The translations under genes and the position numbers were made by a program. From a virus (taxonomy: Duplodnaviria; Heunggongvirae; Uroviricota; Caudoviricetes), in the IMG/VR virus record IMGVR_UViG_2698536369_000012, positions 1 to 9,761 of that record: a stretch of 9,761 bases of DNA. One strand, given 5' to 3'. Shown here in pieces: positions 2,236 to 9,494 of this stretch. The notes beneath the pieces were generated by a model. That model was given only the letters and a program-made list of their open reading frames with translations, was not told where the DNA came from and searched no databases. How positions within the stretch are numbered: position 1 is the stretch's first letter; each line of letters opens with the position of its first letter.

Positions 2236-2619
2236 TCAACCAATCAGCTTATAGCGACCATCCCGTGCATTGCGGCGTACACGCTCAATCTTGAGGCATA
2301 GCGCCGCATCTGGCTTTTTTGGGACAGGTACGCGGCAATATTCAGAAGCGCGAGGAATATTATTTATCCAGTCGATCACTTCACTTAAATACCAGGCCTT
2401 ACGCCCTTCCGTAACCTGCACACGCTCCGGGAACTCTCCACTAGCCTCAAGGTTTAGCAGTGTACGACGACTCAGGGTTGTAATTTCCATCACCTGATTC
2501 ATATCAACAAGGCGCTCGCTTAAACACATTTTGTCAGCGATAGCTTTTAATTCCTCTACAGCTGGATTCGGGTACATCATTTCGGCAATTGGCTTAAGGT
2601 CATTGTAATCATTCTGCAT
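2236..2619 (-). CDS. AlpA/Xis-type (MerR-like) helix-turn-helix DNA-binding protein, 127 aa, with N- and C-terminal extensions
   Basis: Central segment VMEITTLSRRTLLNLEASGEFPERVQVTEGRKAWYLSEVIDWI fits the AlpA/excisionase pattern (ITxLSRxTL ... G.FP ... W..SEV..WI). Strong RBS AGGGGGA 4 nt before the ATG, 11 nt after the stop of the decoration gene. Confidence 0.7.
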   Translation of the reverse strand: MQNDYNDLKPIAEMMYPNPAVEELKAIADKMCLSERLVDMNQVMEITTLSRRTLLNLEASGEFPERVQVTEGRKAWYLSEVIDWINNIPRASEYCRVPVPKKPDAALCLKIERVRRNARDGRYKLIG

Positions 2620-4943: not shown

Positions 4944-4990
4944 TTTTATTTTTACCCCCTCGTTTAAAAAGTTTTTTGTGCACCACCACC

Positions 4991-5218
4991 TTGTCTACCT
5001 TGTCTACCTGATTAGTTATCAGGCCAGTAATGGCGCGGGTTTCAGGGAGGTAGACAGCCCCAAATAGCTGTCTACCTCATCTCTACCCGTCTCCTTACCT
5101 GTCTACAAAAATGGGTAGATAAGGTAGATAACAGGTAGACAGTGAAAAATAGTTATCTACCTGCATTAATACATTGAAATAAAAGTATTTTATTTCAGTC
5201 AGGTAGACAAGGTAGATA
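4991..5218. repeat. Iteron array: at least 12 copies of the octamer GGTAGA(C/T)A / TGTCTACC in both orientations, with an AT-rich spacer; putative replication origin
   Basis: Copies read at 4991-4999, 5000-5008, 5049-5056, 5069-5076, 5080-5088 (variant), 5100-5107, 5114-5121, 5123-5130, 5134-5141, 5153-5161, 5202-5209 and 5211-5218. AT-rich block at 5161-5200. Sits immediately 3' of the primase-helicase gene. Confidence 0.7.
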
Positions 5219-5232
5219 ACCATTGCCATTTT

Positions 5233-6984
5233 TTATAAAAACGCATCGCAATCATCAGTAGTCGTTGCGTTGGTCTGCGTGACTCCCTTAACTTTTCGCG
5301 TAATATATTCATATCCGTAAACTTTCGCCGCTGACCTCATAGCCTTTCCGAACTCATTCACGCTCAAACATTTCCCCTTTCCTGTATATGCCATGAAGGC
5401 CATATAGACACGGTAAAGGCTGTTTCTGGTCGTGTACTTCACGGTGTCACCACCACCGCCCATCATTAGCCCACGAGCTTCCTCCAGAAACTCCAGCGCC
5501 GCGCAAAGCTCAACAACCGGATCCGTTTGCTGCTTTATTGCCAGAGCTTCATCACCGTCACGCTGTTCCAGTAATAAAGCCCGTGCCTTTTCAGGGTCAG
5601 CAAAATTAGCCAGCAAGCGGCGGATAATTACGGGGATTTCTGCCGCTATCTTTTCCGGTAATTCCTTGTCTTTTTCGTCCTCCCTTACAATGTTGTCGAA
5701 CCGGAAAATCACCCGACGGCGTGACACACCTCCGGCCCGTTCGGTAAAGATCATCGGGTCGTTATTGGTTGCCAGTACCACCGCCCTTATTATCGTCGTG
5801 AATCGCTTCTCATATTTCGGGTTAATTTCAACGGGATCGCCTCCCGTGATTTTCTTGATGCCCGTGCCTTCCCCCGTATATTTCGGCTGATCGGCAAGGA
5901 CGATAAGACGACTCCCGACAACCTGCGCGCGCCCTCCTGCATCATCGAGTGATGTCATCTCTGCGCTTACGGTGTTCTGTTTGCCAGCAAGCAGGGTGGC
6001 AATATGGGTAAATGTACTCTTACCGCTTCCCCCGTCTCCGGTGGCCTCAATGAACATCTGCCAGTCGTAGCGGTTCGCCATAATCATGTATAACGCGGCA
6101 CATATACGCATCATCTTGCGCGGGTCTTTTCCTGCAGCATGTTCAAGCCATTTATGGAAATTTGGCGCATTATCGCGGATGTTTTCCCCTGCTACTGGTG
6201 GCGTGTACTCAATGCCATTGTGCGTGGTGCTCCAGTGCTCCGGTGAGTGCGGAGAAAAATCCCCCGTTTTCAGGTTAAGCACACCATTAGTGAACGGTAG
6301 TAAATCACCGGACGGCTCCCCCATGGGGTCGGCAATAACTTTTAACGCTTCCACGGCGTTATTGATTACACGTTTGCTGAACGTGGCCCTGTGCTCTGAA
6401 TAGATCGCCACCATTTCGCGGCTCAGCTCCATTGTGCTGACCGGACACCATACCCCGCCGCGCCATACGTGGACGATTTCACTTTCTGCATGAACACACA
6501 CACCATCAAAGCGATCGGCAAGTAGTTGTGCACGTTCACTGTCTGCCATCTGTGAAAGTTGCGCCTTTTGCTTCGTCGGAAGATTAAGCACCAGACTTTC
6601 CCCACGCTCGCATTCCTCTTTGAGTCGCGGCAACTGGTCGGATAAATCCACGGGGCTGGTGTCAGTAATCCCCGCGTATTCGTGTACGGTCTTCACTCCA
6701 GCCACAGCCAGTAACGTAACAATCTGCGTCATGCTGTGCTCTGTGATATGTCCTGCGCGGTAAACACGCACACACTGACGATCTTCATCAATGATCCGGT
6801 AATCGATGATGTTTTTCAGTTGCTCATCAGCCAGCACGACAGGCGGCACATCGTCGGCGGCAATATGTTTACCCGCCCATTCCTGCCACTCTTTCGCATG
6901 GCTCCACGCATCACTACCTGCAAAGATGATTACCTCTGTCAGTCTGTCGCGTGGCTGTTTTTTTAAGTTCGGTGCCAGTTTCAT
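5233..6984 (-). CDS. Replication primase-helicase, P4-alpha/D5-type with SF3 helicase domain (583 aa)
   Basis: Walker A GDGGSGKST, Walker B-like RLIVLADQP and motif C VVLATNND are in the order typical of D5/P4-alpha SF3 NTPases. RBS AGGGG lies 7 nt upstream. The start overlaps the upstream gene's stop (ATGA). Confidence 0.85.
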   Translation of the reverse strand: MKLAPNLKKQPRDRLTEVIIFAGSDAWSHAKEWQEWAGKHIAADDVPPVVLADEQLKNIIDYRIIDEDRQCVRVYRAGHITEHSMTQIVTLLAVAGVKTVHEYAGITDTSPVDLSDQLPRLKEECERGESLVLNLPTKQKAQLSQMADSERAQLLADRFDGVCVHAESEIVHVWRGGVWCPVSTMELSREMVAIYSEHRATFSKRVINNAVEALKVIADPMGEPSGDLLPFTNGVLNLKTGDFSPHSPEHWSTTHNGIEYTPPVAGENIRDNAPNFHKWLEHAAGKDPRKMMRICAALYMIMANRYDWQMFIEATGDGGSGKSTFTHIATLLAGKQNTVSAEMTSLDDAGGRAQVVGSRLIVLADQPKYTGEGTGIKKITGGDPVEINPKYEKRFTTIIRAVVLATNNDPMIFTERAGGVSRRRVIFRFDNIVREDEKDKELPEKIAAEIPVIIRRLLANFADPEKARALLLEQRDGDEALAIKQQTDPVVELCAALEFLEEARGLMMGGGGDTVKYTTRNSLYRVYMAFMAYTGKGKCLSVNEFGKAMRSAAKVYGYEYITRKVKGVTQTNATTTDDCDAFL

Positions 6985-7280
6985 TTTTTGCCCCTGAATG
7001 CGTTAATCATGCTTTTCATTTTCTGGATGTTTCCCCGCGCTTTTTCCCTGCTGGTGGGCTTACTGCGGGGTGCGGCATATACCAGGGAAAAATCACGCCG
7101 GAACTGATAAACAGGCATCACGCAGTCATAGCTATACCCCTCACGGCGGTAAGTGATGCGCCGTTCTGCCACGCCTTTAATCTTTACCGTGCCGCCGTAT
7201 TTATCGCGGTAAATATCGCCGTTCATAAATTCAGGCCGAGCGGGGCCGCTGGCAATAAAGCCAGAATTTTTCATTTCCAT
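6981..7280 (-). CDS. Hypothetical basic protein (99 aa), translationally coupled to the primase-helicase
   Basis: ORF track; GAGGAA RBS; 4-nt stop/start overlap with the primase gene. Function not recognised. Confidence 0.55.
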   Translation of the reverse strand: MEMKNSGFIASGPARPEFMNGDIYRDKYGGTVKIKGVAERRITYRREGYSYDCVMPVYQFRRDFSLVYAAPRSKPTSREKARGNIQKMKSMINAFRGKK

Positions 7281-7297
7281 ATTATTTATTCCTCGAC

Positions 7298-7519
7298 TTA
7301 ACTCGACTTATTTGATAGCAGGGCACTATTTATTGCGTCATTGAGTTTTTCTGCTGATTCATCAATAAGTGACAACAGGCCATAAGCAATATTTGCATCT
7401 TCATTGTCATTTATGCAATCAAGCCACATATTTAATATTGCTTTTGCTGAATTATTTAAAGTTAATGAACTTTCTGTACATGCTAACAATTTAAAAAAGA
7501 CTTGCCGTTCTGTATTCAT
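7298..7519 (-). CDS. Hypothetical small protein (73 aa), AT-rich
   Basis: ORF track; GGGGGA RBS 4 nt upstream; start is directly adjacent to the upstream gene's stop. Confidence 0.5.
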   Translation of the reverse strand: MNTERQVFFKLLACTESSLTLNNSAKAILNMWLDCINDNEDANIAYGLLSLIDESAEKLNDAINSALLSNKSS

Positions 7520-7711
7520 TTAATCCCCCAGCAGCTTACTTTCTTCCTCAATCAAAAAACTAGCGACACTTCCCGAAAGACGCGCCAGTAGGCTCGCCAG
7601 TGCGGATATATCAGCATCTGTAATTTTGTTCGGGTATACCTCAAGAAGGCGGCAAATAATTTCTGTCTGGTGCGCACGTTCAGCGGCTTCGTGTAATGTA
7701 ATTTCCTGCAT
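7520..7711 (-). CDS. Hypothetical small protein (63 aa)
   Basis: ORF track; AGAGGTG RBS; its start overlaps the upstream gene's stop by 1 nt (TAATG). Confidence 0.5.
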   Translation of the reverse strand: MQEITLHEAAERAHQTEIICRLLEVYPNKITDADISALASLLARLSGSVASFLIEEESKLLGD

Positions 7712-7896
7712 TAATGCACCTCTTTTAATTCATACACTGCTGAAATAATGACTTGTGATAAGCCATATTCTGATGATTCGCTTCTCACCGCAGCAATAGC
7801 CGTCTGAACATTAACAGCCTTCACATTCTGAGCGATACCAATTGTGTGGCCTAGTGGGTTAACAGCTCGGGCAAATACACGGAAGGTTTTAAGCAT
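7711..7896 (-). CDS. Hypothetical small protein (61 aa), first gene of the minus-strand operon
   Basis: ORF track; GGGAG RBS 5-6 nt upstream of the ATG at 7894-7896. Confidence 0.5.
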   Translation of the reverse strand: MLKTFRVFARAVNPLGHTIGIAQNVKAVNVQTAIAAVRSESSEYGLSQVIISAVYELKEVH

Positions 7897-8177
7897 GACT
7901 CACTCCCTGGCGGATTTTTGCAGCGAATACAGCAACACAACCGGACGGGCAACGGCTACGCGCTTCGCGTTCCGTCCAGGCGGTTACGTGGATGATTTGA
8001 GATTCTCCGGCACTCAGTGCCAGAAAACGCCACACAAAGGCCGTTTGTGTGTGTACAAGGTGTGGTATATGATTTACAGCAACCATAACGGCTCCTAGTT
8101 TACGTTGTTGGTTAGACGCCCCGTATGTGTTCCCAGCACTGCGGGGCGTTGCTCTTTGTATTTCAACAATCCTTTCG

Positions 8178-8255
8178 GTGTGTTTCATGTTATGAGCGCA
8201 TGAAACACACGTCAAGGCTTTTTGTATTTCTTTTTTTGTGTATACTGAAACACAC
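8178..8255. promoter_or_regulatory. Operator-like site set in the divergent intergenic region: perfect 12-bp inverted repeat plus a third half-site overlapping an extended -10 element
   Basis: gtgtgtttcatg (8178-8189), 9-bp spacer, catgaaacacac (8199-8210); a third gaaacacac copy at 8247-8255. TGTG-TATACT (8237-8246) looks like an extended -10 for the 8277 gene. Confidence 0.5.
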
Positions 8256-8276
8256 CGATGATTAGGAGTTTCAGAA

Positions 8277-8582
8277 ATGGCAACGGCTAACAAAAACGCA
8301 AAATCACAACTGACAACTGTCAGAGTCCCACTAGATGTTATGCAAGGGATGGAATCCGTTAAGCTGGACGGTGAAAGCAATGCCGGATTTATCGTAACCG
8401 CCATGCGCGGAGAAATAGCCCGCCGCCAAGCAGAAGGCAGCGGAGAAAATCCCCTTGTGTCGTCACTGGATGCCCTGGCTAAGGTCGAACAAATCGGCAT
8501 CAAAGCAGCCGAGGAGATCGGGCAACTCGTCACCGTCGCGCGTGAAGAACTCCAGCGACGCAAGGTCAAAGAGCATGAATAG
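8277..8582 (+). CDS. Hypothetical protein (101 aa), possibly a small DNA-binding regulator
   Basis: ORF track; AGGAG RBS 8 nt upstream; sits next to the operator-like repeats. N-terminal LTTVRVPLDVMQGM is reminiscent of a ribbon-helix-helix beta strand, but that is weak. Confidence 0.65.
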   Translation: MATANKNAKSQLTTVRVPLDVMQGMESVKLDGESNAGFIVTAMRGEIARRQAEGSGENPLVSSLDALAKVEQIGIKAAEEIGQLVTVAREELQRRKVKEHE

Positions 8583-8639
8583 CCAATATCAGCGCCATAG
8601 TTTGAGGAACGCAGGCGCATTGCTTTACAGGACAGCACC

Positions 8640-8819
8640 ATGAGCGACACAGAATCAACCAAAACACCATCACCAACTCGTAAGAGACGACGCAAAAATA
8701 TAGCGCATGAACATGAATCAGAAAGATTCGCACCTTGTTCGTTTGCTCTTGAGAAATTCCTTAAAGAGCACAGGAAAAAGCTCTCGTTGCAAACCTTGGA
8801 ACGAACCAAATCTGACTGA
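8640..8819 (+). CDS. Possible small basic protein (59 aa), not in the ORF track
   Basis: My own translation from ATG 8640 to TGA 8817-8819: MSDTESTKTPSPTRKRRRKNIAHEHESERFAPCSFALEKFLKEHRKKLSLQTLERTKSD. AGGA lies 7 nt upstream, and a terminator follows. Confidence 0.35.
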   Translation: MSDTESTKTPSPTRKRRRKNIAHEHESERFAPCSFALEKFLKEHRKKLSLQTLERTKSD

Positions 8820-8885
8820 TCACATTGCCCACCAGCCGCAAATGTGGCATTGTTGGTGATGCTTTTGTTTTCCCTTGTTCCCACT

Positions 8886-8916
8886 GGCGACCCTTTTGCG
8901 GTCGCCTTTGTTTTGT
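8886..8916 (+). terminator. Rho-independent terminator between convergent genes
   Basis: ggcgacc (8886-8892) / ggtcgcc (8900-8906), a perfect 7-bp stem with 7-nt loop, followed by tttgttttgt. Confidence 0.6.
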
Positions 8917-9494
8917 CACTGAATGCGGTTACCAAAGTAAAACTCAGGCTGATATTCACGTATCAGCGTTTTTTCTTCTTCCTCCAGCTCACGCTTTTTG
9001 CGCTTACATGCCTGTAGCTCCCTCCCCTTCTCGCTGGCACTTATTTGATATTGCTCTTTACGGCGGGAAAAATCCTGTAATGCACCCCACGGGATACCAT
9101 AAGTCCCCGTTTTTCTGATACCTGGTATCACATTTCTGAATACCCAGTTACTGAAACGATGAGCAAATGTGCCAGGCGTCGTTGCTTTGCGGCTGCGGGC
9201 TATTAGTTTGTAGAAACCTGACTCAGAGATAATTCTCATATTCTGATTTCCTCCTGGGGTGTAAGTTAAATTTACTCCCTTTTCATCATCATCAAGCATC
9301 TGCAACGCCGTACGCGAATTGGTTAGTTCCAGCGCAGCACAAACATCTTTTGCAACAAACCACGGATCGCCGTTCAGATACACCACACGAACGTTCACAC
9401 TATCAAAGCGCAGAACGACGAGATCACGAATATCGCAGAATTTTTTCACTGGACGAGCGTACCCCTTGCCCGTCACGGCAATATTTTTATTCAT
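8916..9494 (-). CDS. Bro-N domain protein (phage antirepressor-like), 192 aa
   Basis: N-terminal ~100 aa (RFDSVNVRVVYLNGDPWFVAKDVCAALELTNSRTALQMLDDDEKG ... ISESGFYKLIARSRKATTPGTFAHRFSNWV) fit the Bro-N / antirepressor N-terminal domain pattern. C-terminal region is charged and coiled-coil-like. Confidence 0.8.
   Translation of the reverse strand: MNKNIAVTGKGYARPVKKFCDIRDLVVLRFDSVNVRVVYLNGDPWFVAKDVCAALELTNSRTALQMLDDDEKGVNLTYTPGGNQNMRIISESGFYKLIARSRKATTPGTFAHRFSNWVFRNVIPGIRKTGTYGIPWGALQDFSRRKEQYQISASEKGRELQACKRKKRELEEEEKTLIREYQPEFYFGNRIQ

Follow-up and report, generated by a model that had tools for sequence, protein, structure and literature searches.

The region at positions 8156-8255 and its flanks, in a 9,761-nt stretch of viral DNA (hereafter the window), probably acts as the on/off switch of a phage satellite of E. 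coli, judging from comparison of its sequence with relatives. Our preferred reading, which we consider likely, is a two-layer PICI switch. In this switch, a predicted ribbon-helix-helix (RHH) repressor would act at five DNA sites, and an antisense RNA would act on icd, the first gene of the leftward operon.

Island context and gene content

By its gene content, the element belongs to the Gram-negative PICIs of the helper-embedded type (HE-PICI). The window encodes the regulator AlpA (2236-2619, minus strand; Pfam/NCBIfam scans), a D5_N/DUF5906 primase (5233-6984, minus strand; Pfam), captured lambda-D-like and lambda-E-like head proteins and an SSB (all minus strand; ORF map with Pfam/NCBIfam), and it has an origin-like field past the primase. 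An int gene is present in the relative from E. coli strain 104 (L001, NZ_CP029164.1), which is 100% identical to the window over the 380-bp region 7897-8276. The strain 104 island carries int, alpA, primase and capsid genes and lies inside the major capsid gene of a lambdoid prophage, the two halves of which flank it; this matches the HE-PICI layout described by Tommasini, Mageeney and Williams (PMC10111431). In the terms of that paper, the 380-bp region forms the border between the 'Bro zone' and the 'Replication zone'. The split lambdoid capsid gene is found at 173-961 and 12270-12515 of the strain 104 locus, and the island has capsid and decoration genes of its own. DUF262 and HEPN genes occupy its cargo end, and the window carries in their place an unrelated 296-aa ORF (300-1190) with no NCBIfam or PADLOC match; PADLOC likewise returned no match for the Bro-N gene, ylcI or the 59-aa ORF described below. 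Among 5426 complete E. coli genomes, 956 (approximately one in six) matched at least part of the 380-bp region, and 127 carried at least 80% of it.

Beyond its first gene, the leftward operon continues through 5233..7896 (minus strand) with three small ORFs, a DUF4222 gene and the primase gene, all presumed to be controlled by the promoter P_L described below; the DUF4222 gene and the several small minus-strand ORFs of the window were identified from the ORF map and Pfam/NCBIfam scans. The ORFs of this segment overlap or abut in the ORF map, which fits translational coupling, and their order is identical in L001 and a second relative, L002. Directly downstream of the primase gene, at 4988-5224, at least 12 copies of the iteron GGTAGAYA/TGTCTACC are arranged in both orientations around an AT-rich core. 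This field is probably the replication origin of the island, and PICI origins have been described downstream of the primase (PMC10111431, PMC6092414).

To the right of the control region, on the plus strand, are the ylcI gene (8277..8582), which encodes a 101-aa YlcI/YnfO-family protein, and a 59-aa highly basic ORF (8640..8819) that matches phrog_21027 (function unknown) and converges on the Bro-N gene (8916-9494; Pfam). The 59-aa ORF is probably co-transcribed with the upstream repressor gene, and a small ORF resembling it is annotated in L002.

Extent of the gap and the icd gene

The original prediction treated all 380 bp as a region lying between the operon and the 8277 gene. This proved to be partly coding: PGAP annotation of an identical sequence places a 65-aa Icd-like CDS, the first gene of the leftward operon, at 8086..7889 (minus strand), and the true gap is 8087-8276 (190 bp). 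The product is named 'host cell division inhibitor Icd-like protein' in RefSeq and scored 63.7 bits against NCBIfam NF033153 (cutoff 25). Its SD (AGGAG) is at 8097-8093 and its ATG at 8086-8084, and its stop codon overlaps the ATG of the next ORF.

All five sequence elements that the original prediction had listed are present as described, but three of them (the GC hairpin at 8116-8149, the palindrome at 8009-8021 and the inverted repeat at 8031-8051) are not operators. As icd occupies 8086..7889, the latter two sit in coding sequence. The palindrome was rejected as a functional element and is a chance occurrence: among 80 close relatives, a synonymous change breaks it in 15 and its centre is altered in 8. 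The inverted repeat has 8-bp arms (8031-8038 and 8044-8051) in icd codons 12-19, and on the minus strand it forms a hairpin followed by GCGUUUUCUG, matched in a terminator scan. The arms are invariant in 79 of the 80 close relatives and variation is confined to the loop, so that the alignment carries no covariation information. By analogy with P4 and P1, this hairpin might, speculatively, be a translation-sensitive terminator that couples a block of icd translation to polarity on the primase gene.

A 356-aa minus-strand frame (7889-8959) is in frame with icd, runs antisense to ylcI and the 59-aa ORF, and starts beside the stop codon of the Bro-N gene, recalling the nested eta/kil genes of P4. 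It was rejected as a gene, as distant loci (L006, L008, L010 and L011) do not keep the frame open, and it is probably a chance frame.

Half-sites and divergent promoters

The perfect 12-bp inverted repeat in the gap was confirmed, with arms GTGTGTTTCATG (8178-8189) and CATGAAACACAC (8199-8210) separated by a 9-nt spacer, as was the third copy of the repeat, TGAAACACAC at 8246-8255, where 8175-8187 and 8246-8258 are complementary at 13 of 13 positions. Only 10 bp of each 12-bp arm is kept in relatives. Across the 9761 bp of the window, the 10-mer TGAAACACAC has exactly three copies, which share a stretch of 81 bp. When the 190-bp gap was shuffled 20,000 times with dinucleotides preserved, only 60 of the shuffles held any 10-mer in three copies. 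Such counts weigh far less as evidence than the conservation in relatives.

We applied a k-mer scan for the most-repeated 9-mer per locus to 49 non-redundant upstream regions. In most loci, the repeated 9-mer was found at near-constant positions of approximately -120, -98, -76, -54 and -31 from the ATG. The window has five such half-sites (S1-S5). The copies noted in the original prediction are S2 (GTGTGTTTCA, 8178-8187, the left arm), S3 (TGAAACACAC, 8201-8210, the right arm) and S5 (TGAAACACAC, 8246-8255), while two degenerate copies had been missed: S1 (TTGTATTTCA, 8156-8165), which matches S2 at 8 of 10 positions and lies at -120 from the ATG in group A, and S4 (TTGTATTTCT, 8222-8231), which matches at 7 of 10. 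Stronger copies of S1 occupy the same position in other groups. The centres of S1-S5 are 21-24 bp apart, giving a spacing of ~22.5 bp, or about two helical turns, in phase.

The half-sites appear to overlap two conserved divergent promoters, one directed leftward to the icd-to-primase genes and the other rightward to the 8277 gene. The leftward promoter, P_L (8187..8215, minus strand), is of the sigma-70 type and scored 9/12 in a consensus scan, with a -35 box TTGACG (8215-8210), a 17-bp spacer and a -10 box TAACAT (8192-8187); transcription would start near 8180. The pattern TTGACx-17-TAAnnT is kept in most specificity groups, and weaker variants (TTGCAA, TTGATA and TATAGT) also occur. The rightward promoter, P_R, is marked by the -10 hexamer TATACT (8241..8246, plus strand), conserved as TGTGTATAnT across specificity groups. 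The original prediction had called this an extended -10 (TGTG-TATACT); the hexamer stands, but the TG abuts it directly and is off by one from a TGn motif. P_R has no recognisable -35, and its weakness in this region is why the consensus scan misses it. S2 lies over the putative +1 region of P_L and S3 in the P_L spacer beside the -35 box, whereas S4 lies over the -35 region of P_R and S5 over its putative +1 region; S2 and S3 bracket the P_L -10 box, and S4 and S5 that of P_R. In the 15 unique group-A sequences, the half-sites, both -10 boxes, the P_L -35 box and the SD of the 8277 gene (AGGAG, 8264..8268, plus strand) are invariant, while the spacers vary.

An inverted repeat spanning 8164-8224 and followed by a T-run could also be read as an RNA terminator or attenuator on a plus-strand transcript rather than as a protein site, since its arms extend to 26 nt with 81% complementarity and are followed by TATTTCTTTTTTT. 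However, only the 10-bp cores are kept and the remainder of the stem varies without compensation, the motif recurs in phase at S1, S4 and S5, and in two groups (C and E) S2 and S3 are direct, not inverted, repeats. This last arrangement indicates that the sites act as DNA and rules out a role as an RNA hairpin. We consider such a terminator highly improbable. A further reading takes the repeats for replication-origin iterons bound by the primase or an initiator, as five phased repeats lie near a replication operon. This is barely credible, because both promoters are overlapped by half-sites that track the RHH protein, and because the separate iteron field at 4988-5224 lies where PICI origins have been described.

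Covariation of half-sites with the protein N-terminus

Searching one genome per species for the 101-aa protein yielded seven loci with 50-74% identity, from Photorhabdus, Yersinia, Scandinavium, Pantoea, Lelliottia, Xenorhabdus and one record labelled Pseudomonas. A metagenome scan added 74 further loci, and mosaic relatives were collected from E. coli genomes. Nearly all examined loci have a small first leftward gene (mostly Icd-like), a gap of ~190 bp and then ylcI.

Between locus groups, the half-site copies all change together, and the change tracks residues 9-18 of the protein, which comprise the N-terminal arm and beta-strand. The types found between groups are GTGTGTTTCA, GTGTGATTYA, GTGTGCAT, GTGTAAG.. 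and GTGAKATACA. The protein segment KSQLTTVRVP is paired with GTGTGTTTCA, KSKQISIRIP (group B, ..NDKSKQISIRIP) with GTGTGATTYA, KSQIKNVR(V/I)P with GTGTG(C/T)AT, KSQSLTARIP with GTGTAAG.., and the group E segment KSQMTTIRVP with GTGA(G/T)ATACA; variants beyond the five named also exist. The proteins of loci L027, L031, L049 and L061 are near-identical from residue 19 onward, while their residues 1-17 and their operators differ. Conversely, a single N-terminus/operator type was seen in combination with three distinct C-terminal domains and with differing icd types, and the operators travel with the ylcI gene, independent of the icd type.

The operators are only 20-120 bp from the codons for residues 1-17, and co-inheritance through linkage therefore contributes to the correlation between protein and site. 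Linkage cannot account for the concerted change of five dispersed copies.

The half-sites might instead be bound by another protein, such as AlpA, the Bro-N protein (encoded nearby at 8916-9494), a host factor or a regulator from the helper phage. Among regulators of Gram-negative PICIs, AlpA alone has experimental backing (PMC6092414). Against this, the half-site follows the N-terminus of the adjacent protein across at least six specificity classes, including proteins that differ in residues 1-17 only, and the operators recombine with ylcI independently of the icd module. We consider binding by another protein unlikely. These comparisons favour the 101-aa product, one of the two ligands originally proposed, as the likely ligand, given that the half-site copies track its N-terminus and an RHH fold is predicted for it. 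The other proposed ligand, a helper-phage protein, gains no support, although a helper-encoded anti-repressor is possible. The suggestion of a repressor-controlled divergent switch is likewise upheld on comparative grounds, by half-sites over two conserved promoters, the covariation of site and protein, and the predicted RHH fold.

The 101-aa YlcI/YnfO-family protein

The 101-aa candidate repressor scored 63.3 bits against NCBIfam NF041551 (cutoff 30) over residues 9-50, and RefSeq names the identical protein YlcI/YnfO. Homologues of YlcI form ~216 clusters across Enterobacterales, some of which UniRef calls 'Arc-like DNA binding domain'. In a structure predicted with database homologues, an RHH domain at about residues 9-54 is followed by a long C-terminal helix (59-100), and the N-terminal strand and two helices superpose on solved RHH domains. 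Since a monomer was modelled, the paired beta-sheet is presumed. Alignment by hhalign puts QLTTVRVP on the DNA-reading strand of Arc, QFNLRWP, with probabilities of 8% for Arc and 1% for Mnt. The protein scored 16 bits against the curated RHH family Pfam PF07704, below the cutoff of 28.3, and 28 of 35 homologues match that family weakly. A sequence-profile search of the PDB with the 101-aa protein gave no match, and the best Foldseek hit, Arc, was non-significant (E = 5.6). Because this sequence-level evidence is weak, we regard the RHH fold as supported and membership in the curated RHH family as unproven.

The C-terminal helix recalls the C-terminal tetramerisation domain of Mnt and probably mediates oligomerisation. 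Short repressor forms of 60-64 aa (L010, L081 and L083) do not have this helix, and their upstream regions have no recognisable S1 and S4, which hints that the helix may mediate cooperative binding. In the phage collection, we found no YlcI homologue and a single Icd match, in a satellite-like 'phage' of 16.5 kb. We also considered the hairpin as a cos site and the protein as a packaging factor, and rejected this: a lambda cosN search with GGGCGGCGACCT returned nothing above chance.

A candidate antisense RNA over the icd start

The GC hairpin cited in the original prediction is present, with 8116-8123 paired with 8142-8149, but it is not an operator and appears to terminate a conserved plus-strand RNA that lies antisense to the ribosome-binding site of icd. 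The candidate cis-antisense RNA (8081..8163, plus strand; ~80 nt) is supported by folding, covariation and G·U asymmetry. It would consist of a first stem-loop (SL1, 8081-8113) that displays an anti-SD sequence CUCCU in its loop, a terminator stem-loop (SL2, 8115-8150) that contains the GC hairpin and is backed by both folding and covariation, and a U-rich tail (8151-8163). As in intrinsic terminators, the GC-rich stem at 8115-8150 is followed by UGCUCUUUGUAUUU, which contains an interrupted U-run. The RNA would have full complementarity to the 5' UTR, SD and start codon of icd.

The proposed promoter of this RNA has a good -10 box, TATGAT (8068..8073, plus strand), located inside icd codons 5-7, with a -35 or TGn motif in some classes only. 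In the form TAnnnT, the T, A and final T of the box are invariant in 27 of 27 distinct aligned sequences, even though the overlapping codon encodes His, Cys, Tyr, Arg, Asp or Ser. From type to type, the start codon of icd is displaced by 6 nt, while the box stays at a fixed distance from the structure, and a near-invariant A lies ~8 nt downstream of it, at 8081.

The 83-nt window version folds at -33.5 kcal/mol (z = -4.77), in contrast to the complementary mRNA leader on the minus strand, which is not unusually stable (z = -0.41). From the 27 distinct sequences, RNAalifold gave 21 pairs, 12 of them with double changes. In the tested structure, 95.9% of cells pair and 11 pairs change on both sides, values reached by none of 500 shuffles, while slid controls showed ~40-54% pairing.

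Alternatively, the hairpin at 8116-8149 could be no more than a terminator or insulator, or could belong to the fold of the icd mRNA leader, with no regulatory antisense RNA involved. This would fit the weak -35 in several classes and the ability of the minus strand to form the hairpin as well, with 83.9% of its cells paired. G·U cells, however, number 58 on the plus strand and 0 on the minus strand, the -10 box stays invariant and at a constant distance from the structure even though the codons change and the start moves, and a second covarying stem-loop displays the anti-SD whereas the minus-strand leader has the unremarkable z given above. We consider this alternative doubtful and favour the antisense RNA.

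Rfam searches of the whole window (E<=1) and of 7850-8300 (E<=10) gave only meaningless eukaryotic miRNA/lncRNA matches and no C4, isrK or c4-a1b1, whereas the same search detected C4 (77.6 bits) and isrK (66 bits) in the relative L004. Literature searches by literal sequence and keyword retrieved nothing relevant on the antisense RNA or on an RHH PICI repressor, and the RNA is apparently undescribed.

We also considered a longer Icd protein starting at ATG 8188, or a leader peptide running through the hairpin. The frame is open in 6 of 9 loci, but both were rejected, as the frame relative to the conserved hairpin differs between the window and L002 and ATG 8188 falls within the P_L -10 box.

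Proposed mechanism

In the first layer of the proposed switch, the 101-aa RHH repressor would bind the five ~10-bp half-sites S1-S5, with its specificity residing in residues 1-17 (the N-terminal arm and beta-strand). P_L would drive icd, several small ORFs and the primase gene, and P_R would be the repressor's own promoter; binding would thus both silence replication and autoregulate the repressor. In the second layer, a ~80-nt RNA would start near 8081 and end at the hairpin 8116-8149 and its U-rich tail. By displaying an anti-SD in a loop, this RNA would block icd translation, and the block would lead through polarity to lower expression of the downstream replication genes. The replication operon would then be under a double lock, formed by an autoregulated RHH repressor and a cis-antisense RNA. 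Release could occur via a helper or island anti-repressor, or by read-through from the int/alpA side.

Modular exchange at this position

Many E. coli genomes match 7920-8159 only, which corresponds to the icd and RNA module, and others match 8100-8276 only, the ylcI module; O157:H7 strains are among those that carry the 7920-8159 segment. Other divergent genes lie beside the window-type icd and hairpin in L003, in L004 and in 80 loci from IMG/VR, and several of these genes have RHH-like N-termini (...PPYQMRLPEDF..., ...PTFQIRISK... and ...PPFQFRLDPDL...). L003, at least, has repeats of its own (TGGTAATTACCATG, twice) beside the same TTGACA -35. Unrelated small divergent genes with RHH-strand-like N-termini, e.g. 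MSTPLEKRSPPYQMRLPEDF..., were observed at 2740-2900 of L003 and in IMG/VR loci L108-L149. A RefSeq 'Icd-like pseudogene' on the opposite strand of L003 may be spurious.

In L004 (NZ_CP074958.1), a P1/P4-type C4 RNA and an isrK/seqA-like RNA, detected at the bit scores given above, lie at 2713-2898 in the 5' part of the window-type icd, and a second icd copy follows downstream of this insertion. The C4 and isrK insertion and the swapped divergent genes mark the position as a hot spot for exchangeable immunity devices, and from these sequences RNA-type and protein-type devices appear to exchange here.

Meaning and novelty

In the PICI EcCICFT073, AlpA acts as an activator and no repressor is needed (Fillol-Salom et al. 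2018, PMC6092414), and our literature searches found no description of a master repressor in a Gram-negative PICI. In a large subset of islands, the ylcI cassette is a candidate for such a repressor. Its candidate operators and promoters are mapped, and a candidate RNA absent from Rfam adds a second layer.

A broader claim, which we put forward tentatively as falling a little short of probable, is that many Gram-negative PICIs carry a swappable RHH master-repressor cassette placed head-to-head with the icd-primase operon, together with an undescribed cis-antisense RNA, and that swapping of the 17-residue N-terminal arm/strand and the five operators has made at least six heteroimmune classes. 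If true, this would speak to a question posed in 2018, namely whether a global repressor exists in Gram-negative PICIs, and would provide a natural specificity-swap series for RHH-DNA recognition. A 17-residue segment paired with a 10-bp site in otherwise identical proteins is a data set for an RHH recognition code, and N-terminal swaps could define immunity groups among satellites.

Comparison with known systems

The immI region of P22, known from the work of Susskind, Sauer and McClure, combines the RHH repressors Mnt and Arc with the divergent promoters Pant and Pmnt and the antisense RNA sar. The switch described here resembles it in having a predicted RHH repressor divergent from the controlled operon, with predicted operators over both promoters, and a small candidate cis-antisense RNA (~70-80 nt) over a ribosome-binding site in that operon; Mnt, too, has a C-terminal helical oligomerisation domain. 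The two differ in that the 101-aa protein has no detectable sequence homology to Mnt or Arc, that P22 has one operator of 17-21 bp where five half-sites at ~22.5-bp spacing are found here, and that the P22 operon encodes an antirepressor whereas this one encodes Icd-like, DUF4222 and primase proteins.

Copy control of pMV158 relies on the RHH repressor CopG and on the antisense RNAII, which acts on repB. Both arrangements pair an RHH transcriptional repressor with a translation-blocking antisense RNA (each a candidate here), the two limiting expression of a replication gene. CopG, however, is encoded in the repB operon and has one pseudo-symmetric site, whereas the repressor gene here is divergent and the direct antisense target would be icd, upstream of the primase gene.

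In the immI region of P1/P7 (c4-icd-ant) and in P4 immunity (CI RNA, seqA/seqC, kil/eta), as here, the controlled operon begins with an Icd-like ORF whose translation start is the target of RNA control, by a candidate RNA in our case. The L004 relative carries a C4 and isrK cassette in the same leader, and PICIs carrying C4/isrK-type RNAs have been reported (PMC10111431). By contrast, the window has no C4 (RF01695) or isrK (RF01394) match even at E<=10, and the candidate RNA would be encoded in cis by the opposite strand, between a promoter and a terminator of its own, rather than processed from the sense transcript. In the Stl/Rpr systems of Gram-positive PICIs/SaPIs (PMC6092414), the repressor gene also faces the replication module across divergent promoters, but the candidate repressor described here is a small protein, and its gene does not share the orientation of int.

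By sequence and Rfam comparison, the switch is not a member of the P22, pMV158, P1 or P4 systems. Its nearest counterparts by logic are P22 immI and the CopG and RNAII pair of pMV158, and by gene content P1 immI and P4 immunity.
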